Origin: Patescibacteria group bacterium
GTDB lineage: Bacteria; Patescibacteriota; Minisyncoccia; Phycocordibacterales; JACOZG01
NCBI GenBank assembly: GCA_034658935.1
Contig: JAYEGE010000006.1
Span: 24,912 to 88,911, forward strand
Direction of reading: 5' to 3'
Length of the DNA stretch: 64,000 nt
This document shows, piece by piece, positions 15,672 to 60,063 of this stretch; the first letter of the stretch is position 1; each line of letters opens with the position of its first letter. The notes under the pieces were generated by a model. It was given only the letters and a program-made list of their open reading frames with translations. It did no database searches and was not told where the DNA came from. The position numbers were made by a program, and so were the translations under genes.

Positions 15672-15760
15672 TGATTATATTCTTTTGATTGAGAATATCA
15701 AATAAGCCACAAAGTTAATAAGAAGTGGATTATTAGACCAGGCTATGATAGAGTCTGGCC

Positions 15761-15895: not shown

Positions 15896-15901
15896 AGGCT
15901 T

Positions 15902-30399: not shown

Positions 30400-30900
30400 T
30401 TATAAACTAATACCGTCTCCGGTTTGGAGATTAAAGTTCTCGGCCAAGCCGGCGTTAACCTCTAAAACATAACGAATGGGTTGAGGTGGAGAGAAGGTCT
30501 GGGGGAAGGAGTCCGGCTGGACATTATGTTCGATTTCGATAATACGCAATTGACTGTCTAGCCACAGGATATCAATGGGGAAATTCATATCCTTCATCCA
30601 AAAAGATGGCTCAGCCGGGCGCTCAAATGAGAAAAGCATTCCCTCGAATTCGCCCAAACTTTCGCGCCCAGAGAGCCCGCGAGCCTGCTCTTGAGAGGTC
30701 TTAGCTAGCTTTACCTGGAGGCGTAGACTCCGCACGCGGAGTTCAATAGACTCGGTTTGTTGCTCTGCGATTATTTTATCTAAACGATAAGCGGGGGTGC
30801 GGAATATTTGCACTAAGAAAGCAACAAAGATCAGAATGATGATAATAAGAAACCAACTTACTTTGCTTGTGTGTTGATGAAGTTCGTGAGACATAGCCAT
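30400..30900 (-). CDS. DUF192 family protein
   Basis: 166 aa with an N-terminal TM; MKDMNFPIDILWLD matches the DUF192 core. Confidence 0.65.
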   Translation of the reverse strand: MAMSHELHQHTSKVSWFLIIIILIFVAFLVQIFRTPAYRLDKIIAEQQTESIELRVRSLRLQVKLAKTSQEQARGLSGRESLGEFEGMLFSFERPAEPSFWMKDMNFPIDILWLDSQLRIIEIEHNVQPDSFPQTFSPPQPIRYVLEVNAGLAENFNLQTGDGISL

Positions 30901-31643
30901 TGTTCTAAAGTTAATTCTTCAGCTCTCGCCTTGGGTTCAATTTTACAACTCTCTAATACGTCTGTCGATACATTTAAATTGCTAGCAAGTAATTTACGTT
31001 TATGAGCAAAGCCCTTTTTAAGTAAAGTGAAGAATCTTTCTTCCTCTCCCTTGGTAGCCAACCTATCTCGAGAAATCTCATCAATAAGTAATATGGCCGA
31101 ATCAACTTTAGACCTTGGTGTGAAGTGCCTGGCGGCAACTCTGGCAACGAGACGTGGCTGACCAAAAACTTTCACGCTTAAAGACAGTAAACTTTCTTTA
31201 ACTTTGGTGCGGGCGCCGCGGCGAGCCGTGGTTGCGATGCGCTCTGCTACTTCTTGTTGGAGCATTAAGACCACTAACTCGGGTTGTTGCACGGCGGTTA
31301 GTAGCTGGCGCAGGATCTGTCCGGTCAGATAATACGGAATATTGGCCACCACCTTGTATTTACCCTTAAGCGCTTGGTCGACGATATCGCCATGAATGAC
31401 CACTAATTTCCCCGTTTCCACCGCCCCACTGAAGCGATTATTGAGAAAACTGATTAACCGATCGTCTTTTTCCACTGCCACCACCTTCCCCGCCTGTTTC
31501 AATAGGGCCCCAGTTAGGAAACCCCTTCCCGGCCCTATTTCGAGTACGGCGTCTTTGGTTCCCAATTTGGCAGCCTTAATGATTTTGCTCCGAATAGCCG
31601 CGCTATTCAGCCAATTTTGCCCCAATGATTTCTTCGCCCTCAT
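30858..31643 (-). CDS. rsmA: 16S rRNA (adenine1518/1519-N6)-dimethyltransferase
   Basis: 261 aa with SAM-binding motif LEIGPGRGFLT and the NIPY motif (VVANIPYY). Confidence 0.9.
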   Translation of the reverse strand: MRAKKSLGQNWLNSAAIRSKIIKAAKLGTKDAVLEIGPGRGFLTGALLKQAGKVVAVEKDDRLISFLNNRFSGAVETGKLVVIHGDIVDQALKGKYKVVANIPYYLTGQILRQLLTAVQQPELVVLMLQQEVAERIATTARRGARTKVKESLLSLSVKVFGQPRLVARVAARHFTPRSKVDSAILLIDEISRDRLATKGEEERFFTLLKKGFAHKRKLLASNLNVSTDVLESCKIEPKARAEELTLEQWLCLTNFINTQAK

Positions 31644-31674
31644 ACTTCTGTCCCCAATCTGGCCTCCTTATCCC

Positions 31675-31698
31675 ATTTGGACACTTCGTGTCCAAATT
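31675..31698. repeat. REP palindrome TTTGGACACTTCGTGTCCAAAT
   Basis: Perfect palindrome inside the 3-prime end of the RAYT ORF. Confidence 0.9.
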
Positions 31699-31838
31699 TA
31701 TTTTCGACAATATCTTGGAGGGAAGCCTCGGCGAACTCTCGGTATTCTTTGGGGCTCCCGAATTGGCTTAAAATAAGGCTTTTATCGCAGATCGTCCCCG
31801 CGTTATCTCCCAAATACTCACTCCAACTAGTCCGTGCT

Positions 31839-31862
31839 AATTTGGACACTGCGTGTCCAAAT
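31839..31862. repeat. REP palindrome TTTGGACACTGCGTGTCCAAAT
   Basis: Perfect palindrome inside the RAYT ORF. Confidence 0.9.
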
Positions 31863-32344
31863 GAATGGGCTTGATGGTTGAGGTTGATATAGACGCTGAG
31901 ATGCAATAAATACTCATCCGAATCCACATGTTTTGCCTGGAACCCACTTTCCCATAGCCTCCCTTTCCGCTTGTAACGAGCGTTGAAATACTTGCTGTAT
32001 CCCATATTTAGACGTTGCATGAAGCGCTCGATACCTTTTTCGGCAGTTGGTTGAACCAAGAAATGATAATGGTTTGGATTAATGGCGTAAGCTACGAATT
32101 TAACCAATGGTGATTTGGCTCCATTGATAGGTGGATAGCCGAGCTTCTCTAGGCGTTTGTCGATAAAGGGTTTTTCGTAGAGGCTACCAGTGGTTTGTTT
32201 GCTATTGAATTCCCGTAAGGCCAAGAAAAAACGCTCAACATCACTATTATCGAGAAAAACCGACCTTTTCTCTACTCCGCGATTATAAATATGGTAGAAT
32301 TCGCCCTCTACGAATGGTTTTTTCCTCATTGTCGCCATCTTAAC

Positions 32345-32368
32345 ATTTGGACACTGCGTGTCCAAATT
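32345..32368. repeat. REP palindrome TTTGGACACTGCGTGTCCAAAT
   Basis: Perfect palindrome at the 5-prime end of the RAYT ORF. Its translation gives the spurious MDTQCPNV N-terminus. Confidence 0.9.
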
Positions 32369-32375
32369 ATTTAGG

Positions 32376-34358
32376 TTAGAAATCGATGCTAATTAAGGGT
32401 GTATTTCGATCGGCGAGGAGGTTATCGTCGATGTCGGCCAGGAAATCCGAGGGGAGATTGACTCGGCGGGAGCCGAAGATGGTTCGGCTCTGGGCGTAAC
32501 TCAAATAAAGCCTCTCGCGAGCGCGAGTGAGAGCGACGTAGAAGAGTCGTCGTTCCTCTTCCCCGTCTCTCTCCTCGTCTTCTCCGAAGCGTACGTAAGG
32601 GAAGAGCCCCTGTTCCATACCAACAATGAACACGTATTTAAATTCTAAGCCTTTGGCGGCGTGGACGGTCATCAATCTGACGCCCGCCTTTCTGCCTGAT
32701 TGCTTTTGATCCAAACTGTCTTGCTCGCTAGTTAGAGAAGCATCGGTTAACATTTGCCAGGTGCCTTCCCCAGGCGGGAATTGGTCGTACTTCAAGGCCA
32801 AGGTGGCTAACTCTCGCAAGTTACCCAAACGCTCCTCCCCTTCTGGCCCATCTTTCTTTAATTCTTCCTCTAAACCAGAATGTTTGATGGCGAATTTAAT
32901 TAAGTCACTTGGTTTTTCTTTTAATGCCGCTTCTTTGATCTCTGCCAGAACTTTGTCGAAGGCTGCTATTTTCACTCGCGTTTTAGCTGGCAAACTTTCA
33001 CTCAAGCCGGCGGCCATCTTCCCTAAAGTAACTTTGCCTATCCCTCGTGGTGGGACATTAATGATCCGCTTCTTACTCTCCCAATCTTCTGGATTTAAGG
33101 CCGCCCTAATCACTGCCAACACGTCCCTAACTTCTTTGCGTTCAAAGAAGCGAGTGCCCAATACTTGATAAGGCAAACCAGCCCTAAGCAGAGCCTCTTC
33201 TAAGATTCGCGATTGGAAATTGGCCCTATAAAGTATAGCTATTTCGCTAGCCTCTGTCTTTTCCTTAAGTAGGCCCTGGATCTCGTTCGCTACCATCGAG
33301 GCCTCTTCTCCTTCATCAATTCCGACCATGAATTGAATCAATTCGCCGTCTGGATTCTTGGTGAAAAGTTTCTTGTCGTGTCGTTGCTGGTTCTTACTTA
33401 TTACTTGGTTGGCGGCGGTTAAGATTGTTTGAGTGGAGCGATAATTTTCTTCTAATAAAATAATTTTTGCCTCCTTATAATCTTTTTCAAAACGCATTAA
33501 GTTCTTGAAGTCTGCTCCGCGCCAACTATAAATAGATTGATCGACATCGCCAACAACACAAATGTTCTGACTCTTGGCTGCTAGTAATTTAGCTAACTCG
33601 TATTGTGCTACGTTAGTGTCTTGATACTCATCAATATGGAGATAGGGCCAACGTCGTTGGTAATACTCGAGGATCTTAGATTCTTTTTGCAATAACTTAA
33701 CCACTTTAAGAAGCAGGTCGTCGAAGTCGAGAGCTTGGCGTTTAGCTAAGGCTTGTTCATAAAGTGGCCAGATTATGGCGGCAATTTTCATTGGCGGCCA
33801 TTGGCCCTTGCTTGCTTTCTCTCTAAAACTATCTGCTGTTACTAAATTACCTTTCTCGCGGCTGATGATTCCCAAAATTCGTCGCGGCTCTACCTCCCTG
33901 CTCTCTATTCCTCGATCCTTCAGGAGCCCCTTAACAATACTCATGGAATCATCCTTATCGGCGATAGAAAAAAAGCGATTCAAGCCTAGGGCCCCGGCGT
34001 TCTCTTTCAAGATATAGGCGCCGAGAGCGTGGAAGGTGCTAACAAAAGGGCTAGCTGGCCCTCTCCTTCCCTCGTCACCCCAGGCTCCCCCCAATAGTTT
34101 GCTGATTCGCTTGCCCATCTCCTTGGCCGCCTTATTGGTGAAAGTAATCGCTAAGATTTTCTCTGGCTCTACTCCACCATCTATTAATTGACCGATCCGA
34201 TAAGTAATCGCCTTAGTCTTACCAGAGCCGGCACCGGCTACGATGAGGAGCGGCCCTTCTTTATGGGTTACTGCTTCCTTTTGGGCTGGATTGAGGCCGC
34301 TTAAATCTATCATTGTCACCAAGTCTAGCATGCTGAGGGCCACTTCTTGGTTATCCAC
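32376..34358 (-). CDS. pcrA: ATP-dependent DNA helicase PcrA/UvrD family
   Basis: 660 aa with Walker A AGAGSGKTKAIT and the UvrD/Rep superfamily 1 helicase motifs. Confidence 0.9.
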   Translation of the reverse strand: MDNQEVALSMLDLVTMIDLSGLNPAQKEAVTHKEGPLLIVAGAGSGKTKAITYRIGQLIDGGVEPEKILAITFTNKAAKEMGKRISKLLGGAWGDEGRRGPASPFVSTFHALGAYILKENAGALGLNRFFSIADKDDSMSIVKGLLKDRGIESREVEPRRILGIISREKGNLVTADSFREKASKGQWPPMKIAAIIWPLYEQALAKRQALDFDDLLLKVVKLLQKESKILEYYQRRWPYLHIDEYQDTNVAQYELAKLLAAKSQNICVVGDVDQSIYSWRGADFKNLMRFEKDYKEAKIILLEENYRSTQTILTAANQVISKNQQRHDKKLFTKNPDGELIQFMVGIDEGEEASMVANEIQGLLKEKTEASEIAILYRANFQSRILEEALLRAGLPYQVLGTRFFERKEVRDVLAVIRAALNPEDWESKKRIINVPPRGIGKVTLGKMAAGLSESLPAKTRVKIAAFDKVLAEIKEAALKEKPSDLIKFAIKHSGLEEELKKDGPEGEERLGNLRELATLALKYDQFPPGEGTWQMLTDASLTSEQDSLDQKQSGRKAGVRLMTVHAAKGLEFKYVFIVGMEQGLFPYVRFGEDEERDGEEERRLFYVALTRARERLYLSYAQSRTIFGSRRVNLPSDFLADIDDNLLADRNTPLISIDF

Positions 34359-34523
34359 AAAGGGTCCTGGCAGACTTGAAGTGGGTCTACCCTCATGCTA
34401 GGATAACAGTCTCCGCTCTTCTGACTGCCAATATGGCTGATCGACCGGAATACCGCTTAAACTGGGCTTATTTTACCTCAACTATCAGCGTCTAACCCCT
34501 CTCGGTTCTCGGGTTGGACTGTC

Positions 34524-35468
34524 ATGATCGCTCTATTTATAGTCCTTCTCTCGGCAGGGCTATTTTGGCCTGTCTGGCATGCCCAGGCGGGCCTTATTGG
34601 TTCTAATTCTCAGACCTTGGGTTTGGCGCCTAATTCGCCTAACCCAGCCACTGCAATCGGTGGGAGTGAGATCACGATTACTGGTGGTGCCCTTCTCCCC
34701 GATAGTGGGGTGATCGGTACTATGGCCGATGTTGAGGATAAGCCTAAGAGCGATCAGATTAGTCTGTATGTTGTTCGCGAGGGCGACTCTTTATCTCAGA
34801 TCGCCGAGATGTTTAGTGTTTCAGTGAACACTATCGCCTGGGCCAACGACTTCGAGCGTGGTGCCACCATTAGGCCTGGTCAGATGCTCCTTATTCTCCC
34901 TGTTTCAGGTATCCGCCACACTGTGGCCGAGGGTGAGACGGTGAGGAGTATCGCCAAGAAGTATCAGGGTGACGCGGAGGAGATTATTCAATTCAACGGC
35001 TTAGACGCTGAAGGCATTTTGGCTAAGGGTGATGTCGTTACGATTCCTGGTGGCGCCCATTCTGTGGCACCATCTAGCAAGAAGGTTTATGCCGAAGTCC
35101 GAGGTTCTAATGGCCCGTCCTATGCTGGGTATTACATACGGCCTATTGTCGGTGGAGTCCGTTCTCAAGGCCTGCACGGCCATAATGCCATTGACCTAGC
35201 GGCCCCTGCCGGAACCCCTATCATGGCCGCCGCCTCCGGTCAGGTTATTGTCAGCCGGTCTGGTGGTTGGAACGGGGGTTATGGTAATTACGTAGTAATT
35301 AGACATGATAATGACACTCAGACACTTTATGCTCACAATACCAGCAATACCGTCGGGGTGGGTCAGCGAGTGGTCCAGGGTCAGGTGATCGGTTATATGG
35401 GTTCGACTGGCCGCTCGACCGGCAATCATGTCCACTTTGAAATCCGTGGGGCTAAAAATCCATTTTAG
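34524..35468 (+). CDS. LysM domain-containing M23 family metallopeptidase
   Basis: 314 aa with a signal peptide, two LysM-like segments, and M23 motifs HNAIDLAAPAGTPI and GNHVHFEIR. Confidence 0.85.
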   Translation: MIALFIVLLSAGLFWPVWHAQAGLIGSNSQTLGLAPNSPNPATAIGGSEITITGGALLPDSGVIGTMADVEDKPKSDQISLYVVREGDSLSQIAEMFSVSVNTIAWANDFERGATIRPGQMLLILPVSGIRHTVAEGETVRSIAKKYQGDAEEIIQFNGLDAEGILAKGDVVTIPGGAHSVAPSSKKVYAEVRGSNGPSYAGYYIRPIVGGVRSQGLHGHNAIDLAAPAGTPIMAAASGQVIVSRSGGWNGGYGNYVVIRHDNDTQTLYAHNTSNTVGVGQRVVQGQVIGYMGSTGRSTGNHVHFEIRGAKNPF

Positions 35469-35565
35469 TTTTATGACGTTTGATTTTATTTTGATGGCAT
35501 TAATTTTCGCTCGACAATATGTAGCGTAATTTTATTTTTTATCTTTTGATCTAGATAATATTCCA

Positions 35566-35607
35566 AATTGAAAAACTACCCCGATGGACATCGGGGTAGT
35601 TTTTCAA
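35566..35607. terminator. bidirectional terminator hairpin
   Basis: Perfect 16-bp stem GAAAAACTACCCCGATG-GACA-CATCGGGGTAGTTTTTC with A/T runs on both sides. Confidence 0.65.
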
Positions 35608-35654
35608 TTTGCCCTGAGCAAGCCCCTTCCCCGCGAGTCGAGGGGGCTTATTCG

Positions 35655-35677
35655 CTTGGACATTGAATGTCCAAATT
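35655..35677. repeat. REP variant CTTGGACATTGAATGTCCAAATT
   Basis: Palindrome with GGACAT arms instead of GGACAC. Confidence 0.8.
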
Positions 35678-35785
35678 CGGGGTAAACCGTGTTCTGACTT
35701 TCTACCGGGATTCCCGGTAAATATATGAAAATACATCTCCCAAATAGCGCCTTTTTGGCCAATATAGACTCTTTTTTAAGGAATT

Positions 35786-36219
35786 TTGACCCTTCCCGAA
35801 AAGACGTGCTTCATATTACCGCAAATAAAAAGCTCCGAAGAATTAACTAGATTTCTCACAGAAATAGTTCCCCTACTTCGTCTGGAACCCAGACATGCGA
35901 AACCGATCCAGTATATTATTAGTGAATTAGTAAGAAACGTTTTAGAACATGCTCAAGCTGATAACGGTGCAATTGTATGTGCTCAGTACCATAAGAAAAG
36001 TAATATGATCCGAATAGGGATAGCTGATACTGGACTTGGTATAAAAAGAACAATCAATAAGTCCTACAATGCCGCCGATGATCTAGAGGCCATAAAACTT
36101 GCGCTTGTACCAGGAATCACTGGTACTACAAAAAAGCAGGTGGCTCTGAGCTTAATGCTGGGGCGGGCTTGTTTTTCATAAAATCGATTATATGCAACAA
36201 AGTTAGCGATAGGATTTAA
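35786..36219 (+). pseudogene. HATPase_c-type anti-sigma factor/serine kinase-like gene interrupted by a frameshift in an A6 run
   Basis: Frame 1 (35786-36181) gives ELVRNVLEHA...IGIADTGLGI...GITGTTKK, then terminates. The A6 run lies at 36130-36135. The shifted frame from 36130, ending at 36219, continues KKAGGSELNAGAGLFFIKSIICNKVSDRI, which includes the expected G-x-G-L ATP-lid motif. Confidence 0.55.
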
Positions 36220-36242
36220 TTTGGACACTCAGTGTCCAAATT
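36218..36242. repeat. REP palindrome AATTTGGACACTCAGTGTCCAAATT
   Basis: Perfect palindrome. Confidence 0.9.
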
Positions 36243-36246
36243 CTGA

Positions 36247-37308
36247 TTAGTGCACTAGTTGTGGGGTGCCTTGTTTGACTTGGTAAATTTTCTCTGCACG
36301 GTCGGCTGTCCTGCTGGGACCAAAAACTTTATCAAGTCCAGATTTTAGTGAAGAATCAAGATTTTTAGCATCCATTAACTTAACGATCCCATCGTAACCG
36401 AAGGAAACTAAAGCTGCGTCGAGGATGTCGGTGCCATAGACGGATTTATACTTGGACATTAGCTCTTCCGCCTTATCAGTATAGAAGTTGGTGAAGAAGA
36501 CACCCTCAGCGGCAGAGCCAGCCTCGTTAATTACATCTTGGATTAGAGGGTCGCCAGTCATGAGAGTTGCCCCTAATCCCATTTGCCCAGCTTGGGTCAA
36601 AAATTGAGCATTATGGGGCGGGATCAAAGGAAAATAGACACCATCAGTATCAGACTGTTTAGCTTTAGTTATCGCAGTGCGGTAATCAGTGGTCTCAACT
36701 GAAAGAGTCTCATTGAATGTTACTTCTCCGCCAAGACTTTTAAAGGTTTCGGTGAACACACCAGTAGAAATTTCTGCCCAGGGATCGACGTGGCCGACGA
36801 TTGCTACTTTTCTAAGATTTAGAGTCTCAGAGGCATATTTAGCCATATCTCTAGCTGCTTGCTCGGTAGAGAAACCGTTGCTGAAAATATATTCACCGCC
36901 AGTGTTAATTAAGTGATTGCTATCCCAAAGAACCAAGAGAGGCGTTTTCTCAGTAGCAAAGAGGGGCATAATAGGTTGTGCTTCTTCGATGAGCATCGTC
37001 ACAACTACATCTACCTCGTCTATGTTAATTAACTTATTGGCCGCGCTGACAGATTGCTTGAGGTCAAAGGCGTCATCTTCATAAATGACCTCAATCCGCT
37101 CGCCATTTTCATTAATCTCTTGCACGGCCAGATCAATACCTTTTTTAATTTCCTCACCGACAAAGGCGATATCTCCGGTCAGCGGCAGGATTGCCCCTAC
37201 TTTTAATAAGTCGTCTGGTGCTTTTCGGTCTTGACCAAGGGAAAAAGCTATAAAACCCATGACAATTAGTCCACATAGAACGATTACAGCTATTTTAATC
37301 TTTTGCAT
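36247..37308 (-). CDS. periplasmic substrate-binding protein, branched-chain amino acid (LivJ/LivK)-like, type 1 PBP fold
   Basis: Signal/anchor MQKIKIAVIVLCGLIVMGFIAF and the PLTGDIAFVGEEIKKG pattern of cluster-4 SBPs. No permease or ATPase genes are adjacent. Confidence 0.7.
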   Translation of the reverse strand: MQKIKIAVIVLCGLIVMGFIAFSLGQDRKAPDDLLKVGAILPLTGDIAFVGEEIKKGIDLAVQEINENGERIEVIYEDDAFDLKQSVSAANKLINIDEVDVVVTMLIEEAQPIMPLFATEKTPLLVLWDSNHLINTGGEYIFSNGFSTEQAARDMAKYASETLNLRKVAIVGHVDPWAEISTGVFTETFKSLGGEVTFNETLSVETTDYRTAITKAKQSDTDGVYFPLIPPHNAQFLTQAGQMGLGATLMTGDPLIQDVINEAGSAAEGVFFTNFYTDKAEELMSKYKSVYGTDILDAALVSFGYDGIVKLMDAKNLDSSLKSGLDKVFGPSRTADRAEKIYQVKQGTPQLVH

Positions 37309-37482
37309 AAACGATAATTTTATTTGAATAACGATATTTATCTTAATCAACTTATACCTTTTTGTTAACGGCTCGGTCAAAATTCTAGTTTTGTACTCCC
37401 CAAAGCCTTATTTTACGGGCTCCATATTTAAAAAACTGTCAGGAATATTGACAAAGTAGAGAGTAAGTTCATACTTAATTGG

Positions 37483-38193
37483 ATGTATAAACTTGGACTA
37501 AGCGAGAAGGCATTGGATCTATATAAAGCCGCTATCGAGAGTGGTGTAACCACTGTCGCCCATTTGGCGCAGGTGACAGGGATTAAAAGGCCGACTGCCT
37601 ATATGCAATTAGAAGAACTTATCACCGCCGGTTTAATGGAGAAGGTGAAAATAAATAAAAAGACCTACTTTAAGGCCTCGGACCCTAAAGTGTTGTCAGA
37701 TAGATTAGCTGAAGACAAAAACCTGATCGAACAATTAAGTATTAAATATCAAGAGGGGCTTCTCCATTTGGGCCAGCCTCAAGCAAGAGTCTTAGAGGGG
37801 GTTTCTCACATTAAGGAGCTATATAAAGAAGTAGGAGAGGCGAACAGTATCCGAATATGGTCAAATGTTGGGGAAATATACCATCTTTTTAGTGATGCAT
37901 ATCAAAAATTGGCTGAGCAAGTACGTCAAAATGAGATAAATACTAGAGAAATTATTGCTAGCGGTAAGGCGTCTATGAGGTATGCGAAATATCTGAAACA
38001 AATTGCTGGGCCAACTTATAGCTTTCGGGCATCAACTTTTAAAGATATTGAGAATGACACGATCGTCTTTGGTAATTGTGTGGCGATTTTTAGGTTACAT
38101 GAGAAGAATATCTTTGCCGTCAGAATAGAAGATAGCTCCATTGCCAAAACCTTCAGAGCTATCTTCGATATGTCTTGGGGCGGCCTTAAATAA
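37483..38193 (+). CDS. TrmB-like HTH transcriptional regulator
   Basis: 236 aa with an N-terminal winged HTH (VTTVAHLAQVTGIKRPTAYMQLEELITAGLMEK). Confidence 0.6.
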   Translation: MYKLGLSEKALDLYKAAIESGVTTVAHLAQVTGIKRPTAYMQLEELITAGLMEKVKINKKTYFKASDPKVLSDRLAEDKNLIEQLSIKYQEGLLHLGQPQARVLEGVSHIKELYKEVGEANSIRIWSNVGEIYHLFSDAYQKLAEQVRQNEINTREIIASGKASMRYAKYLKQIAGPTYSFRASTFKDIENDTIVFGNCVAIFRLHEKNIFAVRIEDSSIAKTFRAIFDMSWGGLK

Positions 38194-38215
38194 ATTTGGA
38201 CACCGGGTGTCCAAA

Positions 38216-38217
<2 letters not shown>
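38193..38217. repeat. REP palindrome AATTTGGACACCGGGTGTCCAAATT
   Basis: Perfect palindrome between convergent genes. Confidence 0.9.
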
Positions 38218-39832
<1,615 letters not shown>

Positions 39833-39844
39833 GTAGGAGTGGTT

Positions 39845-40222
39845 CTATTTTAGAGTGTCTTCTTTGTCGAGGTGTTGCGTGCAAGTTCTAGCAGCTGGAT
39901 TGGCCTGAAGCCGATCTTCTTCGATGTCTTGATCACTGACTTCACATTTCCCATAGGTACCCTGGTCGATTTTCTCTAGAGCTAGGTCGATATTCTTGAG
40001 TCGCTTAACTAGCGCTGACTCGGTAGCCTGTCGCTCTTCCATATCTTCTATTTCATCTGCTACCTCATCGCGGAACTCAATGTCGGTCTCATCCTCGATT
40101 GGCTTAGGGAGCCAACGTCCGTTCTCTAGTTTGTAGCCGATTTTGGATAATGAGGTCTCTATTTCCTGCTTTTCAACTCGCAGCTTCTCCTCCTCCTCAA
40201 AGTTTTTGGTGTCTAACGTCAT
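39845..40222 (-). CDS. DksA/TraR-family zinc-finger-like protein
   Basis: 125 aa acidic coiled-coil with a C-terminal GTYGKCEVSDQDIEEDRLQANPAARTC (DksA/TraR C4-type region, partially degenerate). Confidence 0.6.
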   Translation of the reverse strand: MTLDTKNFEEEEKLRVEKQEIETSLSKIGYKLENGRWLPKPIEDETDIEFRDEVADEIEDMEERQATESALVKRLKNIDLALEKIDQGTYGKCEVSDQDIEEDRLQANPAARTCTQHLDKEDTLK

Positions 40223-40260
40223 ATAGGGCCATTGTAGAAACTCAGGCCCCCTGTGTCAAA

Positions 40261-41466
40261 TTAAGATGCCCCGGTGATAAAGCGTTGGAAGATAGTATCA
40301 AAAGCGCCCTCACTAGTGGTGATTAAGATATGATTTTGATCGAGGAAGACGTAGAGCAGGAGTACGTCTCCATCTGGGTTGGTTAGGAGGCGAATATCTT
40401 TATTGCGTATTCGTTTGTCACTGAAATTGGGGGTAATAGCGGGTGGCTGGCGCTCGCCGCTATAGAGGAGCGGCAATAGATCGGTTAGCATCTTATCTTC
40501 CCATTCAATGAAGCCGGCGTAGGCTTGCTCGTGGATGTTACTTTCTAAAATAAGGAAGCGTGAAGTGCGCCCCTCATCATGGTAAACACCAAAACTAAAC
40601 TCAGGGTTAAGGTTGCGGCTGAGTCTATTGCTTATTCCTAAGTCGAAGGTCTGCCTGAGGGCATTAAAAGTTAAGAGAGATTGGCCGCGAAGGAAATAAA
40701 TAGTTTTAACATACAATTGGTCTGATTCTATTAGGTCAGCCTCGGTATCGAGTGAGGCCTTCGGCACCTCGATCCCTTGGCCTAGGCCTAAGGGCTTATT
40801 GTATTCGGAGAAAATGAGGGAGTCTGGCGATGGGGTGGGGGCTGGCGTTACGGGGCCAGTGTCCGTTGCCGGCCAGGACATGTAGGCTACTATACCGCCA
40901 CCGATAATTAAAATGATTACGATGATTAATAACCAAGGCGTCTTTCTATTGGAACGTATTTTAGTTGTTTGCTGCAGCCCTTTTGTTTTCCGTTTTTGCT
41001 CTGATAGAGCAATCTTTACTGCTGAAACATCCCGATTCTTTACTGCCCGAGCAAAGTCTCGAGTATAAGTACGGATAGGGCTAAGGGTAGAGCCAGAATT
41101 CTTCAATTGCTCAATCTTCTCCTGGCTCGTTTGGATTTTAGATACCCGCTTCTGCTTAGCTTTAGCCGCTGTCTCACTTACTCGGCGTTTCTCGATCAGT
41201 ACCGCTTCTTCTTGGCGTTTCTTGTTTTCAGCCTGCCGTTTGCGTTTGGCCTCCAGAGTCGCCTGGGTGGTAGCCTTGCGCCCAGCTATTTGCTCGTTTG
41301 TCTCTCGGCGCCGTTTTTGCTCGGAGCTCTCCATTGCGTGGCGTGCATCTTGGCGCCGCTTGGTTAGGTCAGAGAGTTCCTTTTCTAAATTGGCGTAGCG
41401 CTCTTCACCAGCCAGAGCCTTGCGCGCTGCGTCTCGCTTTGATTCACCGGGGTCGGCCTTCGTCAT
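40261..41466 (-). CDS. hypothetical membrane-anchored protein
   Basis: 401 aa with a Lys/Arg/Glu-rich cytoplasmic N-terminal region, a single TM (WLLIIVIILIIGGGIVAYM), and an extracytoplasmic C-terminal domain. Confidence 0.5.
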   Translation of the reverse strand: MTKADPGESKRDAARKALAGEERYANLEKELSDLTKRRQDARHAMESSEQKRRRETNEQIAGRKATTQATLEAKRKRQAENKKRQEEAVLIEKRRVSETAAKAKQKRVSKIQTSQEKIEQLKNSGSTLSPIRTYTRDFARAVKNRDVSAVKIALSEQKRKTKGLQQTTKIRSNRKTPWLLIIVIILIIGGGIVAYMSWPATDTGPVTPAPTPSPDSLIFSEYNKPLGLGQGIEVPKASLDTEADLIESDQLYVKTIYFLRGQSLLTFNALRQTFDLGISNRLSRNLNPEFSFGVYHDEGRTSRFLILESNIHEQAYAGFIEWEDKMLTDLLPLLYSGERQPPAITPNFSDKRIRNKDIRLLTNPDGDVLLLYVFLDQNHILITTSEGAFDTIFQRFITGAS

Positions 41467-41470
41467 AGCT

Positions 41471-42064
41471 CTATACTCCCCCCTCAGCTTTTAATTGGTC
41501 TTCTAGTCGGTGGAGTTTGTCCTCTTCATCCAAAAGTTGGCGATAGAGAGTCGTGTTCTCATTGACTGTAACTTCGATCTTGCTGAGCTTCTCCTCCTCA
41601 CCCCATTTTCTCTTTTCGACCTCCTTACGTTTGTCTTGTACGTCCCAACGTTTCTTCTCTACTACCTGTTTCTCGCTTGCGACTCCGATCTTCTGCTCCT
41701 CTGCTTCTAAGGCCGCCTCCTCTGCTTCGGTCTTTTTTTCTTCTGCTAAGATTGGATCTACAATTGTCCTAATTTGACGTCGGGCATTATCTAAATCTAT
41801 CCAAGCTAATTCCAGTTTTTCCTTCTCGGCCGCTATTTCCGCTAAACGTTTACCGACCTCACTTAATTTATTTTTAAGCTCTCTTGATTTGGTTTCAGCC
41901 TCACGCTTGGTTGTCCACTCAGCGCCCTCCATGGCACGTTGAGCTTCTTGTCGCTTATCTTCTTGTGTTGACTCCGGTTTATCCTGAGGCTTGTCCTCAG
42001 TAGGAGCTGTAGTTTTGTCGTCTGCCATGGCCAATATTATAAAACAAGACGTCCGACGACCCAA
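41471..42064 (-). CDS. hypothetical charged coiled-coil protein
   Basis: 197 aa, strongly charged (E/K/R-rich). Confidence 0.45.
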   Translation of the reverse strand: MGRRTSCFIILAMADDKTTAPTEDKPQDKPESTQEDKRQEAQRAMEGAEWTTKREAETKSRELKNKLSEVGKRLAEIAAEKEKLELAWIDLDNARRQIRTIVDPILAEEKKTEAEEAALEAEEQKIGVASEKQVVEKKRWDVQDKRKEVEKRKWGEEEKLSKIEVTVNENTTLYRQLLDEEDKLHRLEDQLKAEGGV

Positions 42065-42078
42065 GCTCTTGGGTTAGA

Positions 42079-42660
42079 TCAGGACGCTTTTTTGGTTGTT
42101 AGAGTAGTTCGAGTGTTGGTTCGTCTGCTATTGGGGCGGCGCTGTTTGGTGCCGTTACCGAGTAGATAACGTTTAGTGTTCTCGCCAAGATCGATGAAAT
42201 CGTCTGTTGCCTCCTTTAATTTTCCAGAAGTACTTTTGCCGAAGGCGATCACCTCTACCTGATTACCGCTATTTATTTTCAAATATTCCACTAGGGGGAC
42301 GAAGTCACCATCTCCGGAGGCAATAATGATGGTGTCTACCTTAGAGGCTATCTTGATGGCGTCGACAGCTAAGCCAACGTCCCAATCGGCCTTCTTGGCT
42401 CCGCCGGGGAAGATTTGCAGGTCTTTAGTTTTAACCTCGATGCCCATCTTACCCATTGCCTCCATGAAGGCCTTCTCTTCCCCACTCTCAGTGGTGACCA
42501 TGTAGGCCACTGCTCGAACTAAATTACGGTCAGCGACTGCGTCTTTAAGGATGGCGTCAAAATTAACCCGTGCTCCATATAGATTCTTGGCACAATGGTA
42601 TAGATTCTGAGTATCGATAAAGACCGCCACACGCTGGCCTTGATGTTTGATTATGCTCAT
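42079..42660 (-). CDS. NYN/LabA-like domain protein
   Basis: 193 aa; VAVFIDTQNLYH...ASGDGDFVPLV matches the NYN (DUF88) nuclease-like fold. Confidence 0.7.
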   Translation of the reverse strand: MSIIKHQGQRVAVFIDTQNLYHCAKNLYGARVNFDAILKDAVADRNLVRAVAYMVTTESGEEKAFMEAMGKMGIEVKTKDLQIFPGGAKKADWDVGLAVDAIKIASKVDTIIIASGDGDFVPLVEYLKINSGNQVEVIAFGKSTSGKLKEATDDFIDLGENTKRYLLGNGTKQRRPNSRRTNTRTTLTTKKAS

Positions 42661-42690
42661 AGTAAATTAATTAAATTCCAAACTCGAGCC

Positions 42691-42942
42691 TTATTTTTTG
42701 GACTTTGAGCTTTGGCTTTTGGACTTCTTGCTCCCCAGGTACTTCTCGTGACGACGACGTTGGGCCACCATCTTTAAGAGGCCGCGGCGTGTATGTTCGT
42801 CTTTGGCGTTCTTTTTCAAATGTTTAGTAACTTCGCTAATTCGCTCATTCAAAACTGCCACCTGCACTGACGAAGAACCAGTGTCCTTGTCGTGCTTGCG
42901 ACTCTTCTTTATTAAAGCTTGTTTCTTTTCCATCTTAATCAT
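42691..42942 (-). CDS. rpsO: 30S ribosomal protein S15
   Basis: 83 aa; [38 protein letters not shown] matches the S15 core, with a Lys/Ser-rich C-terminal tail. Confidence 0.85.
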
Positions 42943-42992
42943 ACAATGGATACTAGCATAAAAAGATTATAAAAGCAAGGGTCAATTTATCT

Positions 42993-43907
42993 ATGAAACA
43001 ATATCAACGCTTTTTGGGGGTTGCCGTAGCATTAGCGGTAGTTTGGGCCCTAATATCTAGCGATGGCCATCCTGGGCTGGTCCCGCAGGAGCAATTAGGC
43101 CAGGCGGCTTTGTCTTCACCCCGTACTGTGTTTAGAGGTAGCCACTTTGGATCAGTCTTGCAAGGACAATCAGAACAAATGGCTCCAACTTCACTTCTCT
43201 CCGCCCTTTATACATTTGACGATGCTTATCCTGAATTAGTTCCGTACGAACAATATGAGCAGTCGGGTCAGGTAGTTTTGGCTCCACCTGCTGTAGCGCA
43301 ATTGACGTGCAATAAAACCGAGAGCAATACCGGGAGCATCCCTGTGCGCATTTACAGTGTTTGGGCTTATAAGGCAGAGGCCGAGAGGCTTATAAAAGAT
43401 GCCCTAGCCAAACAGATAGAGTTGCAGGCTTGGTTAGACAGTAAAATTTGTGCAAAACCCTGTGTGAAAACCACTACTGGACCAACAACAGTGATCCACA
43501 TAGACCCTGTCTATACCAATCCTTCTACCTGCCCAAGTCCGCCGTCGCCAGCAGTACACAATCTTTTGTCTACTAAAGTCAGCAAAACCTCTTGTGTGGA
43601 GGCAGAGGCATCGGCACTACAAGGTCTTATCAAGCAAATGGGGGATTTGGCGAATCCCTGTGCGGGGTCGGGTTGTAGTCGTTATTCCCAGGCCTCTAAC
43701 ATCTCAATGGCCTGTACGACAAGTACCTACATAAATTGGCTTGGCAAAAAAAAGCCTAAATATATCGCGGTCGGCAAGGCGACGATAACTATAACTTGCG
43801 GTAAGCAGATTACCGAAACGTTTCCCACAATCAAGGGCTGGTTTGATTGGGGCGCTAGTTATACCTGCGCCCCAAGGCAAGCGCGAATAACCCCTGAGTC
43901 TTCTTGA
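42993..43907 (+). CDS. hypothetical secreted cysteine-rich protein
   Basis: 304 aa with a signal peptide and many Cys. Confidence 0.5.
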   Translation: MKQYQRFLGVAVALAVVWALISSDGHPGLVPQEQLGQAALSSPRTVFRGSHFGSVLQGQSEQMAPTSLLSALYTFDDAYPELVPYEQYEQSGQVVLAPPAVAQLTCNKTESNTGSIPVRIYSVWAYKAEAERLIKDALAKQIELQAWLDSKICAKPCVKTTTGPTTVIHIDPVYTNPSTCPSPPSPAVHNLLSTKVSKTSCVEAEASALQGLIKQMGDLANPCAGSGCSRYSQASNISMACTTSTYINWLGKKKPKYIAVGKATITITCGKQITETFPTIKGWFDWGASYTCAPRQARITPESS

Positions 43908-44004
43908 CATATTGAATAAGCGGGTGTATAATTAATACCAGAGTCATTTTCCGGCACGTTGCTGAGAAAAAGAACTTAGGACTTCGTCAACAAAAGGGAG
44001 TTGA

Positions 44005-44715
44005 GTGATGAGCGGAAATTGTTTTTTTGCGTATTGTGTTCTAGTTTTTTGTGGTTTGGCGGCCGTTTACGGCTGTGTTCACCGGCCGTTCATAGACAAT
44101 GTGCGCCCTGTCGACCCCCAATTCGAGTTCGAATTGATTGGGTTTGGGGCCGATCTGAACCTGTCTCTTTCAGACCAGGACGAGACCACAATTCTCTTCG
44201 AGGGTTTATTTGCCCAAGAAGGCAAGGTGCCACTCGAGGTTATGGTCTCAGTTGATCTGGAGCCCCTGGTTTCGGATTATCGATCCCATGACGTGACCCC
44301 TTACAGCGATCGGGTTTATATCATTAGGCCGGAGCTTGGGACGTCCGCCGTGACCTTTGAGGGAGAAGATTTTTTGCTGGTTTTGCCAGCTTTGCCAGGG
44401 GGCATCGAACGTCTTGCGCCAGCCAAGGGAACTTCTCGCGGGTTTGACCATCACATGGTGGCTTGGATTACTTCTCGCCTACTTGAGTCCTATGGCCCGC
44501 TCGAAGAAGCTGCTGCTTGTGACCCGTGTTGGATCTGGCTGTCTCTGCAAAGTGATGGTTGGGGTTTGGCAACGGGCCAACGTAACGAGCAAGGTGGCTG
44601 CCCGCCTCTACCTCACCCCCTGAAACCAGAGCTTGAACAGGAGCAGAGACCAATCGTTCCCAAGCCACCGAAGCCCGCACTAGCGCGGGCTTTTTTCTTT
44701 GGATTAATTAATTGA
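44005..44715 (+). CDS. hypothetical membrane/lipoprotein-like protein
   Basis: 236 aa with an N-terminal hydrophobic segment ending in Cys (LAAVYGC); lies in a visibly G+C-richer segment. Confidence 0.45.
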   Translation: MMSGNCFFAYCVLVFCGLAAVYGCVHRPFIDNVRPVDPQFEFELIGFGADLNLSLSDQDETTILFEGLFAQEGKVPLEVMVSVDLEPLVSDYRSHDVTPYSDRVYIIRPELGTSAVTFEGEDFLLVLPALPGGIERLAPAKGTSRGFDHHMVAWITSRLLESYGPLEEAAACDPCWIWLSLQSDGWGLATGQRNEQGGCPPLPHPLKPELEQEQRPIVPKPPKPALARAFFFGLIN

Positions 44716-44782
44716 AGAATAAAATAAGCCCCCTTCCGCGCTGTGGCGGTCGGGGGCTGTGGTTTGGAATGCGGGCGAGGGT

Positions 44783-45616
44783 CTAGGCGTCTTCAGGTTT
44801 GCCCTCTTCGGCTGCGCCGCTTTCTGTCCCGGTTGTTCCTGTCTCGGCGTCTCCAGCTCCAGATGTGGGGTCGGGATCGACCGCCTTGGTGTCGTCAGGG
44901 GTGCCTTCCTCTTTCTTCCCCCCGCTAGTTTCGAGAAGGAAGTCGGTTCGGGGGCGCCGGGCGAGACCCAAGCGGTCTAGGGTTAAATAGACTCGATGGA
45001 AACGGGCCTTGGCATCTCCGTGTAATCTCGGCCTGTTCTCGACCGCCCTCGCTTCATCGGCGAGTTCCTGAAGTGCCGCCTTTGCCCTTTTCTCTCGTGT
45101 AGGGGGGTCGGCTTCACTCATGGCACTGTAGGTCAGGTCTAGGATGAGGGCTGTTTCCTCAAGTGCTCTGGCGAATTCGTTGGCCGACTTTTTTTCGTCG
45201 TCTGTTGGGCCGTTCGTCTGGTAGTAAGCGGAGTAGCAGGAGTTAACACCAAGACCGATACATATCACTATAAACGGACAGAAAAACTGGAGGAAGGGGC
45301 TGGAAACTCCCCACCACATCATAAAGGAGGTCCAAGAAATAATAGCCCCGGCTATGTAACTGATTTGTGTCGCCCAGCGCCATCGCTGGAGTCGCTCTGC
45401 CTCCTTTTCCCAACGTTTGGTTTTTAGGGGGTCTGGGTGCCCTTTGAGCACCCAAGTCGCGAGGAAGGTGTGTGGTATCCCGTCCTTCTCGTCGATCTCC
45501 AGGATGTCTACCCCTACCGGGGAATGTACATTACCCGGTTTTCTCAACTCGTTACCCAACATGATAAGGAACTCCTTGTCTAGGCCTAAGTTTGAGGGTA
45601 GATAGCCACAAGCCAC
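44783..45616 (-). CDS. hypothetical membrane protein
   Basis: 277 aa with 2-3 TM helices and an acidic low-complexity C-terminus; G+C-rich. Confidence 0.5.
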   Translation of the reverse strand: MACGYLPSNLGLDKEFLIMLGNELRKPGNVHSPVGVDILEIDEKDGIPHTFLATWVLKGHPDPLKTKRWEKEAERLQRWRWATQISYIAGAIISWTSFMMWWGVSSPFLQFFCPFIVICIGLGVNSCYSAYYQTNGPTDDEKKSANEFARALEETALILDLTYSAMSEADPPTREKRAKAALQELADEARAVENRPRLHGDAKARFHRVYLTLDRLGLARRPRTDFLLETSGGKKEEGTPDDTKAVDPDPTSGAGDAETGTTGTESGAAEEGKPEDA

Positions 45617-45706
45617 CTACCCCCTGCTATTAAGGCCATTTTCACAGTACTGCCGTGATCCTACACTATTGTGAGAGTTTTGTCAATGTGGTCGGACGGG
45701 TAGCCA

Positions 45707-45753
45707 CTTGGACACTAAGTGTCACACTCCCAGACACTCAGTGTCCAAGTGGC
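45707..45753. repeat. composite double-REP element ACTTGGACAC-TAA-GTGTCACACTCCCAGACAC-TCA-GTGTCCAAGT
   Basis: Two REP half-palindromes fused through an ACTCCCAGACAC core. The same architecture occurs at 54131 and, inverted, at 59328. Confidence 0.8.
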
Positions 45754-45791
45754 TTACAAAAGTGTCGGAGGGTGTATAGCGGAGTATCCAT

Positions 45792-45839
45792 GTTGTTAAA
45801 CACCGGGTGTTTAACAAAGTTGCGACGTCGCAACTTTGT
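45792..45839. repeat. two adjacent perfect palindromes TTGTTAAACACCGGGTGTTTAACAA and CAAAGTTGCGACGTCGCAACTTTG
   Basis: Perfect inverted repeats read directly. The first belongs to the AAACAC-NNN-GTGTTT family seen at 6859. Confidence 0.75.
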
Positions 45840-45850
45840 GCAACGGAAAC

Positions 45851-45884
45851 AAAAAAGCCTCGATTCACTAAAGTGAATCGAGGC
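45851..45884 (-). terminator. terminator hairpin oriented for a minus-strand transcript
   Basis: AAAAAA followed by GCCTCGATTCACTAAAGTGAATCGAGGC. On the minus strand the hairpin is followed by a U-run. Confidence 0.55.
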
Positions 45885-45905
45885 CGGGACTCTCCTTGGA
45901 GAGCC

Positions 45906-46100
45906 TTACGATGTCCTCGCCCGGTCCTGCAGAATAGCCAGCAATCTCTTTTTGGCCGCCCTTCCGTGGAGCCATGAACTCTGTTCCAAGCGGACAATCT
46001 GGCTAACTCCCTTGTCTGAACCATCCCCCGACATTTGAGCTAGAGCCAACACGCTTACTCCGCTCGCCCTTCTGCGCCGCATCAATTTCTTGCCTCCCAC
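45906..46100 (-). CDS. candidate small basic protein (64 aa)
   Basis: GTG start preceded by GGAGG at a 7-nt spacing; the ORF ends 20 nt before the 45851-45884 terminator. No homology was recognised. Confidence 0.3.
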   Translation of the reverse strand: MGGKKLMRRRRASGVSVLALAQMSGDGSDKGVSQIVRLEQSSWLHGRAAKKRLLAILQDRARTS

Positions 46101-46227
46101 TTGCGTACCTCCCTGCGTTATTGCAACTCTACCGTGTCATCATTTACCGATAGGCACCTCTCTGGCGCGAAAGAGAAATATAACATCAAATGATTTGTAG
46201 TACAATAGTAGGGTCGCACAATATCTT

Positions 46228-47139: not shown

Positions 47140-47296
47140 GTTATCCACATGCAAGGTATTGCGCTATAGGACATAGCGGATATAATAAAGGACAGATATG
47201 ATTTGGTCATTAACGGAGCATCCGGCCCGGAGTGTCTTTTAAAACAAAAAGAGCCCATCTCTCCACCTTGGACACCCCTCTGGCCGCACTCTTTGC

Positions 47297-47324
47297 CACC
47301 CTCATAAGGGTGGTTTGTTTTTTG
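47297..47324 (+). terminator. rho-independent terminator after xerC/D-like gene
   Basis: Hairpin CCACCCTCATAAGGGTGG followed by TTTGTTTTTT. Confidence 0.6.
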
Positions 47325-47326
47325 TC

Positions 47327-55687: not shown

Positions 55688-55712
55688 GTTTTGGACACTG
55701 CGTGTCCAAATT
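55688..55712. repeat. REP palindrome TTTTGGACACTGCGTGTCCAAATT
   Basis: Perfect core palindrome. Confidence 0.9.
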
Positions 55713-59315: not shown

Positions 59316-59327
59316 GATGATATTTGA

Positions 59328-59373
59328 ACTTGGACACTCGGTGTCTGGGAGTTCGACACCGAGTGTCCAAGTT
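59328..59373. repeat. composite double-REP element (inverted orientation)
   Basis: ACTTGGACAC-TCG-GTGTCTGGGAGTTCGACAC-CGA-GTGTCCAAGT. Confidence 0.85.
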
Positions 59374-59533
59374 CCTTGTCGATTAATAACTGAACCCACA
59401 ACATAGCATAAATCCACCATTTTGCAAGAGGTGGCATTGACAACCACCCCATGTCATGATAATCTCACAACAGAAGGCTAGATGTCCTGGCTGTTCGGGT
59501 CTAGATCCCTGACAAATGAAAGGAGGTGATCGC

Positions 59534-60037: not shown

Positions 60038-60063
60038 AATTTGGACACGAAGTGTCCAAATTT
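60038..60063. repeat. REP palindrome AATTTGGACACGAAGTGTCCAAATTT
   Basis: Perfect palindrome overlapping the tig stop codon. Confidence 0.9.

Follow-up and report, generated by a model that had tools for sequence, protein, structure and literature searches.

The stretch examined here, hereafter the window, comprises 64,000 nucleotides (nt) of contig JAYEGE010000006.1 (positions 24,912 to 88,911, forward strand) from the metagenome-assembled genome (MAG) of a Patescibacteria group bacterium. On its reverse strand it harbors a gene for a protein of the HUH/Y1 transposase superfamily, together with a family of short perfect palindromes that lie beside this gene, within it, and at distant sites in the window. 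The genes for UvrD, the HUH/Y1 protein, RsmA, and DUF192 are closely packed on one strand, and the TGA stop codon of the HUH/Y1 gene overlaps the rsmA start as ATGA (31640-31643). This transposase-like gene therefore looks like a member of an apparent housekeeping operon, one that is conserved in relatives. No tnpB gene is adjacent to it, and a tblastn search of the window detected no second copy. We consider it probable that the gene and the palindromes constitute a system of the repetitive extragenic palindromic (REP)/REP-associated tyrosine transposase (RAYT) type, consisting of one intact, chromosomal homolog of the HUH/Y1 single-strand DNA endonuclease-transposases and its own 21- to 25-bp perfect palindromes. 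A preliminary description of this DNA had arrived at essentially the same interpretation, which our results support with corrected gene borders.

The product translated from ATG 32329 is identical to the 229-residue NCBI protein "MAG: transposase [Patescibacteria group bacterium]." It matches the Pfam family Y1_Tnp (PF01797) with 41 bits against a cutoff of 23 (E value, 2.4e-10). An AlphaFold2 model based on 120 homologs reached a predicted local distance difference test (pLDDT) score of 85 and a predicted template modeling score of 0.82, and its best match in the PDB, identified with Foldseek, was 4er8, the structure of the Escherichia coli RAYT with a REP hairpin (E value, 3.5e-5), followed by structures of the ISDra2 and IS608 TnpA proteins (2xo6 and 2a6m). 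The residues H87, H89, Y147, N149, and N151 are invariant in the 120 homologs, and the tyrosine motif reads Y-[IV]-N-[LQ]-N, with an invariant Asn at position +4 (N151), like class 2 of Quentin et al. 2018 (Y---NP) and unlike IS200 TnpA with its Gln, and no following Pro. By profile and predicted fold, the open reading frame (ORF) is an intact HUH/Y1 enzyme and a member of the transposase superfamily, as had been proposed.

The borders of the gene differ from those first suggested. The preliminary description placed the gene at 31868-32337, treating the repeats at 31841 and 31676 as flanks, but the coding sequence extends from 31640 to 32329, and both repeats are translated along with a conserved C-terminal region. 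In an alignment with homologs, the coding sequence beyond the repeat at 31841 is conserved (...SSW-x-EY...C-x-K-x-I-L-x-QF...), which indicates that the repeat at 31841-31861 is in-frame coding sequence and not flanking DNA. At the other end, the longer ORF (31640-32365, reverse strand) reads into an upstream repeat, and the suspicion that this N-terminal extension is spurious agrees with the NCBI annotation, which begins at MRKK. The same holds for the 44-codon extension of clpP, whose Pfam match starts at residue 57 of the extended ORF and whose real start is MLIPTVIE at 59316.

The repeat unit is a 21-nt palindrome, TTTGGACAC-NNN-GTGTCCAAA, of which the window harbors 12 canonical copies. 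Counted over the 64-kb window with up to two mismatches allowed, the pattern TTTGGACACNNNGTGTCCAAA gave 11 matches, starting at positions 12594, 12647, 31676, 31841, 32346, 36220, 38195, 49592, 49649, 55690, and 60040, where 0.00 were expected from dinucleotide-preserving shuffles. A relaxed core pattern added the GGACAT/ATGTCC variant at 35655, whose two arms carry compensating changes, and an anomalous match at 59353 that proved to be half of a longer compound hairpin. Searches with half-sites located two such compound hairpins (45702-45754 and 59326-59374), each composed of a pair of truncated, mutually inverted units that have CTTGG feet. The repeat family is real and far beyond chance. 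The recurrence, the GGACAT arm variant, and the repeat coordinates of the preliminary description (within 1 to 2 nt) were all reproduced, and its estimate of about 15 copies was fair, given 12 canonical and 2 compound ones. A search against Rfam at gathering thresholds over the window returned only tRNAs; the repeats thus belong to no known RNA family.

All copies conform to (A)ATTTGGACAC-NNN-GTGTCCAAAT(T), are perfect palindromes, and have a foot without GTAG or GTGG; in most of them the flanks extend the palindrome to AATTTGG...CCAAATT. A single unit, folded as single-stranded DNA, has an energy of about -9 kcal/mol (z = -6.6), and the z-scores of the hairpins span -6.6 to -11. Nine copies are dispersed over 48 kb in unrelated intergenic contexts. 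The idea that many copies are paired held only in part, as inverted doublets exist but number just two (12594/12647 and 49592/49649), with the remaining dispersed sites unpaired. Both doublets are exact inverted pairs in which the partners are reverse complements, loop and arm variant included, and their spacers are unrelated. Each would fold into one long hairpin with 23 to 25 outer bp (-31 and -26 kcal/mol); for the compound forms, the energies are -22 and -24 kcal/mol.

Three canonical copies are tied to the HUH/Y1 gene, as first described: U (32346-32366), upstream of the start codon; S2 (31841-31861), within the gene; and D (31676-31696), at its 3' end. No other long ORF in the window has internal copies. 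As single-stranded DNA, U folds at -8.7 kcal/mol (z = -6.6) and S2 at -9.0 kcal/mol. A fourth, degenerate site, S1, corresponds to an intact or near-intact hairpin, CTTGGACAC...CCAAG, in the orthologs of the two closest relatives, L084 and L085 (L numbers designate loci of the family described below), and is 9 nt longer in the window than in these two. The intragenic copies fall in loops of the predicted structure with lower confidence. S1 forms the loop between helix 53-62 and strand 76-83, the pLDDT drops to 73-79 at S2, and around D it averages 51 (residues 211-220), with values below 50 for residues 215-217 and 220-229. The D hairpin follows the stop codon in L085, whereas it is in frame in the window and in L084.

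The gene belongs to a large family. A protein search yielded 994 hits, the nearest about 50% identical over 92% of the length, and nearly all were either unnamed or derived from Patescibacteria MAGs. Among the species representatives of GTDB, relatives are encoded at no fewer than 598 loci. The preliminary description had regarded so dense a system as unexpected in a small, streamlined genome; it is not peculiar to this one. For the layout of the family we retained 79 loci with 10-kb flanks from the GTDB scan, and the layout counts refer to 80 loci. Nearly every locus contains perfect palindromes that follow the scheme NTTGG-N11-CCAAN, span 21 nt (7 codons), differ from genome to genome, and occupy four fixed places: U about 40 nt before the ATG, S1 at about +175, S2 at about +450, and D at or just past the stop codon. 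When occupancy was defined strictly as at least 9 of 11 arm pairs, U was occupied in 55, S1 in 43, S2 in 40, and D in 50 of the 80 loci, and at least three sites were occupied in 45 loci. Intragenic copies share one reading frame (frame 0) in 81 of 83 cases, and the alignment contains the peptide L-G-x-x-x-S-K at two places, with x residues that are often identical at both places within one protein and differ between proteins. The family consensus (120 homologs; 210 to 240 residues) includes NPNHYHF, G-x-LFQG (LWES in the window), YVNLN, and SSW-x-EY. At present, the loci of the family are annotated merely as "transposase."

The hairpin sequences within a locus are strongly coupled. Two sites of one locus have the same arm 6-mer in 75% of comparisons, versus 3.6% for sites of different loci, and the figure is 77% when an intragenic site is compared with a flanking one. 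Dispersed copies in the flanks match the hairpin of the gene at their own locus in 44 of 61 cases. Compound double-foot forms also occur in L029, L043, L060, L063, L066, L075, and L076. The palindromes thus do not look like a mere local duplication, a concern raised at the outset: they spread over 48 kb in the window, the same hairpin is present in the orthologs of the two closest relatives, and gene and palindrome are linked at 79 loci. The exact 25-mer AATTTGGACAC-NNN-GTGTCCAAATT is found at S1 of L080 (3079-3103 of JGI Ga0208246_1000487), whose protein is 42.5% identical to that of the window, and the same hairpin variant therefore accompanies distant enzymes. Some "binchicken" MAGs with the gene are titled Gammaproteobacteria or Bdellovibrionales (L002, L005, L029, L044, L065, and L079), and one NCBI hit is labeled candidate division KSB1; either these labels reflect unreliable taxonomy or the family extends beyond the Patescibacteria. 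In the full-text literature we found no description of a REP/RAYT system in Patescibacteria, the candidate phyla radiation (CPR), or Parcubacteria, the sole match on the topic being a mere KEGG annotation in an archaeon.

The positions of S1 and S2, on either side of the HUH-Tyr catalytic core, raise the possibility that the intragenic copies are more than tolerated passengers and work in cis: as self-targets, they would allow the enzyme, or a hairpin formed in DNA or mRNA, to throttle or inactivate the gene. In most close homologs S2 has remained perfectly palindromic, with arms extended to 16 to 19 bp into the neighboring codons in several loci. E. coli TnpAREP is autoinhibited by a segment that follows the Tyr helix (PMC3479197). 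At L014, a truncated second family gene (14727-14940) covers residues 1-62 and breaks off precisely at an S1-type hairpin; the loop of this hairpin is inverted and thereby introduces a stop codon, and homology ceases at the hairpin. This hints that intragenic hairpins act as rearrangement breakpoints. However, the window gene has an intact ORF although its S1 is in decay, S1 is absent or length-variable in many homologs, and divergent members are devoid of S2, with a canonical-looking ...YPW(C/S)SY segment in its place. A self-target role is conceivable, then, and we regard it as doubtful. Judging from these divergent members, S2 looks like an acquisition within the family.

Comparison of close relatives reveals that the hairpin cores change together. 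The two closest relatives of the window gene (L084 and L085), 73% and 67% identical to it, come from Hainich groundwater (ERZ1292623 and ERZ1292636), and all three share the order UvrD > RAYT > RsmA > DUF192. This order is also found in L006, L024, and L051, and UvrD > RAYT > RsmA is kept down to 47% identity. The three genomes share GGACAC arms. The feet are TTTGG/CCAAA at every window copy, gene associated and dispersed alike, and CTTGG/CCAAG at every site of the two relatives, and within each relative the loops are common to the sites in either orientation. Another case is that of L015 and L025. Their genes are 86% identical at the DNA level and the codons adjacent to the hairpins are identical, while the inner 11 nt have been replaced at U, S1, S2, and D (for example, CGCTTCGGGCG versus AAGCTCTGCTT) with palindromy retained. 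Mosaic genes with two hairpin variants are found in L019, L022, L025, L026, and L059. We infer from such cases a cassette-like overwriting of hairpin cores. The notion that the hairpin arm follows protein phylogeny was rejected, as pairs with the same arm are hardly more alike in protein than other pairs (identity of 0.60 versus 0.57).

The outer hairpins invite a second explanation, in which the gene and its two ends form an autonomous insertion sequence (IS) of the IS200/IS605 type and the dispersed palindromes are solo ends or derivatives resembling miniature inverted-repeat transposable elements. With IS608 and ISDra2 TnpA the system shares the HUH/Y1 fold, the Pfam family of the IS200 transposases, and hairpins near the gene ends as recognition elements, which lie just outside both ends in most loci. 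In addition, the gene neighborhood varies among most of the 79 loci, and the truncated copy at L014 ends at a hairpin. Nevertheless, we judge this explanation very unlikely. The gene is not multicopy: it occurs once in 64 kb, and second copies within loci or MAGs are 33 to 79% identical, not nearly identical. There is no tnpB, and the Y motif contains N in place of the Q of IS200 TnpA (Y---Q; Table 1 of PMC6006769). The position is syntenic, with UvrD > RAYT > RsmA conserved to 47% identity and the stop codon overlapping the start of rsmA, and, instead of different, imperfect hairpins on the left and right, one perfect palindrome is found at both ends. The gene thus does not fit an IS200/IS605 insertion sequence.

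A third explanation concerns the palindromes themselves, which could be host elements, such as 3'-end stabilizers of mRNA, terminators, or sites for another protein, that spread or are maintained without the Y1 protein and have an incidental or regulatory link to the gene. Their distribution is in keeping with this. Six of the seven dispersed sites in the window (each doublet counted as one) start within about 20 nt of a stop codon, and several lie between convergent genes (PBP1A|dnaN, TrmB|ComM, and binding protein|hypothetical). Placement beside stop codons is typical of elements acting in RNA, and 3'-end placement is also usual for REPs (PMC3733652). The upstream copy, moreover, overlaps a promoter-like site. 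Against this, the hairpin variant proper to each genome covaries at four sites in 79 independent loci (75% versus 3.6%), and paralogs within one MAG keep separate variants. Five MAGs harbor two paralogs on different contigs (L050/L071, L059/L068, L004/L038, L036/L052, and L027/L072), each with its own variant, such as GGGGGT versus GGCGGT in a Minisyncoccia MAG in which the proteins are 79% identical; classical RAYTs likewise have separate cognate REP families for each enzyme. In the scanned stretch 30500-50400, a simple intrinsic-terminator pattern was found at two of seven canonical copies, on the strand antisense to the gene, and termination was therefore not put forward as the main role. 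As a replacement for the REP/RAYT interpretation, a host-element origin is quite improbable, while a host role of the dispersed copies is compatible with that interpretation.

The U hairpin suggests a link between the repeats and expression of the gene. A consensus scan identified a promoter-like site in which the left arm of U would provide the -35 element, and its -10 element ends 7 nt before ATG 32329. This arrangement is kept in both closest relatives. Across the family, the U hairpin is directly followed by an extended -10 element (TGnTAnnnT) in 26 of 55 loci, compared with 2 of 128 flanks of dispersed copies and 0 of 40 S2 sites. In 15 of these 26 loci, 6 nt separate the -10 element from the ATG, and the left arm of U (TTGGAA or TTGGAC) occupies the expected -35 position. 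These patterns point to a leaderless mRNA that may be transcribed from a promoter built on the U hairpin.

Among known systems, that of E. coli (REP sequences in bacterial interspersed mosaic elements, with TnpAREP of subclass 2.2; 4er8) offers the obvious comparison. In both, a single-copy HUH/Y1 enzyme is flanked by its own dispersed palindromes, and repeats are found at gene 3' ends and as inverted pairs. In contrast to E. coli, sequence similarity is too low here for profile detection, the hairpins are short, perfect, unbulged, and without a 5' GTAG, and the 229-residue protein has another C-terminal domain and hairpins within its coding sequence. The gene is probably a RAYT in the broad sense, but it is not one of the canonical E. 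coli type (32.5 bits for REP_Tyr_transpos, below its cutoff of 80, and no GTAG guide). In subclass 2.4 (Bertels Group 4; Cyanobacteria and Bacteroidetes), REPs lie in frame within tnpAREP (Quentin et al. 2018, PMC6006769); they keep the reading frame, are located in peripheral loops, and include "double-foot" forms (PMC6006769). Those insertions, however, lie between HuH and Y, while the two fixed sites here are outside the HuH-Y core, S1 preceding the HUH strand and S2 following the Tyr helix, with a unit of seven codons in one frame. The motifs differ as well (NHYH, LFQ or LWE, and YxNLN here, versus NH[IFV]H, WQ, and YIxNNP), so that by motifs and insertion sites the family does not belong to subclass 2.4.

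Compared by eye with Table 1 of PMC6006769, the family looks like subclass 2.1 (Group 1 of Bertels; named TIRYT genes by Di Nocera et al. 2013, PMC3733652), whose signature of NH[YF]H, W[EQ]/FQ, Y[IV]xLN, an SS(W) tail, and a length of about 238 residues it appears to match; copy number is low in both. Subclass 2.1 has been reported to be without associated REPs (PMC6006769; PMC5581495), with at most terminal inverted repeats of the consensus GGGG[AT][CG]A[CG] in some cases. In contrast, perfect palindromes lie both beside and within the genes described here and, in this genome at least, are scattered elsewhere as well. The low copy number of RAYT class 2 (Quentin et al. 2018) is found here too, with one copy in the window and paralogs 33 to 79% identical, and so is the REPtron arrangement, with U and D plus nine dispersed copies in the window and U and D occupied in 55 and 50 of 80 loci.

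Two further systems share single features. REP doublets forming hairpins (REPINs) in Pseudomonas fluorescens (PMC3116915) are also inverted pairs that form a long hairpin and accompany a vertically inherited, single-copy RAYT. Unlike in REPINs, doublets make up two of nine dispersed sites here (two exact inverted doublets versus seven dispersed singles), their spacers are unrelated, and each REP is itself a perfect palindrome. Rickettsia palindromic elements and other intragenic REPs (PMC3733652) are likewise in frame and translated, but the former are longer and occur in many unrelated genes, while in the window the gene of the cognate enzyme is the sole carrier. The literature thus already knows REP/RAYT systems, REPINs, double-foot REPs, and intragenic REPs that are translated (PMC3116915, PMC3733652, PMC6006769). 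To these the present family, which is Patescibacteria-wide, adds a variant: 2.1-like RAYTs whose genes have a fixed layout of four hairpins, with cores that change together at the four sites.

By analogy with TnpAREP and IS608 TnpA (PMC3479197), the enzyme would bind the hairpins in single-stranded DNA and cut and rejoin them at their feet. Such a reaction could generate further copies and hold the whole set uniform, the ones within the enzyme's own gene among them, so that the enzyme would both spread and homogenize the repeats. S1 and S2 would be tolerated loop sites, reoccupied or overwritten whenever the hairpin variant changes. The U hairpin would provide the -35 region and the spacer of the promoter for the leaderless mRNA and, being part of that promoter, could serve as an operator, with expression of the enzyme held down either by the enzyme itself or by hairpin extrusion.

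Several observations weigh against the REP/RAYT interpretation and its mechanism. The protein scored 32.5 bits against NCBIfam NF047646 (REP_Tyr_transpos), under the cutoff of 80, and its motif is Y-x-N-L-N without the proline of Y---NP. A search of the PDB with the family profile returned noise and no RAYT or IS200 entry, so that, given the 4er8 match, the relationship is visible at the fold level only. The 5' GT[AG]G at the foot of an imperfect hairpin, characteristic of canonical REPs, was not found. In most related loci, copies outside the gene are few, with 64 in 1.26 Mb, 9 of them in the window; the genome of the window is thus relatively rich in repeats, and high-copy dispersal may be unusual for the family. 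In a scan of JGI metagenome contigs, the window 25-mer was present on three contigs only. The promoter was called from a consensus match only. We saw neither transposition nor cleavage nor insertion polymorphism, and the role of the enzyme in spreading or homogenizing the repeats is assigned by analogy. Finally, in 41 moderately close pairs, hairpin cores diverged modestly more than flanks (0.51-0.54 versus 0.38-0.46; 0.54 versus 0.38 at S2), a difference confounded by indels, and the case for overwriting hence relies on the closest pairs and the mosaic genes.

A bolder form of the proposal is that the enzyme and its DNA target are physically coupled in one sequence, the copies at the two fixed loops of its own gene acting as substrates or sensors and all copies, that of the promoter too, being rewritten together upon a change of the hairpin variant. 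We consider this improbable on present evidence. If true, repeat proliferation would have built-in feedback, for example through self-cleavage, self-repression, or hairpin-bounded rearrangement of the enzyme's own gene; the peptides encoded by the hairpins might help recognize the hairpin; and the family would hold a natural, datable record of RAYT-driven sequence replacement, a process that to our knowledge has never been directly seen. We likewise know of no proof that RAYTs copy REPs and REPINs and keep them uniform, and of no reconstituted transposition event. The family offers an unusually tractable record in this respect: each gene has a set of four fixed sites, two of which can be read directly from the protein sequence, and the cores change together between close relatives and are sometimes caught half-changed. 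It also connects hairpin repeats to a 2.1-like Y1 branch previously described as REP-less, indicates that ultra-small, streamlined CPR genomes widely keep such systems (at least 598 GTDB loci), and suggests a concrete regulatory link in which a hairpin doubles as the promoter of a leaderless transcript. In practical terms, the repeats account for spurious N-terminal ORF extensions and for stop codons at repeat borders, and they are usable as strain-typing markers for CPR MAGs.

Table 1. Coordinates of the HUH/Y1 gene, its hairpins, and the dispersed repeats in the window
Feature	Position	Strand	Description
RAYT-like HUH/Y1 gene	31640..32329	-	229 aa; ATG 32329; stop TGA 31640-31642
HUH motif H87-Y88-H89	32063..32071	-	Reads CATTATCAT
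Catalytic Y147 codon	31889..31891	-	Motif YINLN; helix 138-149 of model
REP copy U	32346..32366		10 nt after stop of UvrD-like gene, 16 nt before RAYT ATG
Promoter-like site	32337..32364	-	TGGACA (U left arm), 16 nt, TG-extended TAAGAT (consensus scan)
Site S1, degenerate	32114..32143	-	CTCGGCTATCCACCTATCAATGGAGCCAAA; encodes LGYPPINGAK
REP copy S2	31841..31861		In frame; F157-G-H-A-V-S-K163, right after catalytic-Tyr helix
REP copy D	31676..31696		In frame, fused into 3' end of ORF; F212-G-H-E-V-S-K218
Inverted REP doublet	12592..12669		Copies 12594-12614 and 12647-12667, between PBP1A stop and dnaN stop; loops GGC/GCC mutually reverse-complementary; 25 outer bp; -30.9 kcal/mol, z = -11
Single REP	35655..35675		GGACAT/ATGTCC variant, change compensated in both arms
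Single REP	36220..36240		6 nt beyond stop of periplasmic-binding-protein gene (-)
Single REP	38195..38215		Occupies whole spacer between convergent stops of TrmB-like (+) and ComM/Mg-chelatase-like (-) genes
Inverted REP doublet	49591..49670		Copies 49592-49612 and 49649-49669, 3' of UPF0102/YraN gene; copy 2 exact reverse complement of copy 1 including C/T arm variant; -25.8 kcal/mol, z = -9.2
Single REP	55690..55710		Between convergent genes
Single REP	60040..60060		1 nt beyond trigger factor stop (-)
Compound "double-foot" hairpin	45702..45754		Two truncated inverted REPs, CTTGG feet; -22.3 kcal/mol, z = -9
Compound "double-foot" hairpin	59326..59374		Orientation opposite to 45702-45754; -24.1 kcal/mol, z = -8

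Some of the repeats lie very close to neighboring genes (Table 1). The compound hairpin at 59326-59374 lies in the tig-clpP spacer and ends 10 nt upstream of the real clpP start, its TTGGACAC...GTGTCCAA core (59330-59370) ending 14 nt upstream. It is the source of the spurious 44-codon extension of the clpP ORF, and it could affect clpP expression. At 38191-38218, and also at 12591-12614 and 60040-60064, the flanking stop codons are at or within 1 nt of the repeat (TAA-A-REP on one side and REP-TTA on the other), which suggests that, in so compact a genome, the ends of genes are provided or set by the A/T-rich feet.

Other features of the window were noted beside the repeats. The 778-nt stretch 35469-36246, with REPs near its ends (35655 and 36220), has no gene call in the Logan annotation; its sole ORF (35786-36181) matches HATPase_c with 24 bits, below the cutoff of 26 to 27, and could be an anti-sigma-like gene that is small or in decay. 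Around the REP doublet at 49591-49670 there is a cluster of tRNA genes for Gly-GCC, Arg-TCG, Pro-GGG, and Pro-TGG (48814-50236), and a further tRNA-Gly-TCC gene is located at 56418-56488; ARAGORN detected five tRNAs in the window and Rfam, at its gathering threshold, four, missing tRNA-Pro-GGG. The doublet at 12592-12669 is directly downstream of dnaN (12939-14045, reverse strand). Beside dnaN, at 12 to 16 kb, the GC skew switches sign from about -0.09 to about +0.03, and a 456-residue ORF nearby (14301-15671, reverse strand) is probably dnaA; region 12000-16000 is therefore likely to contain a replication origin.

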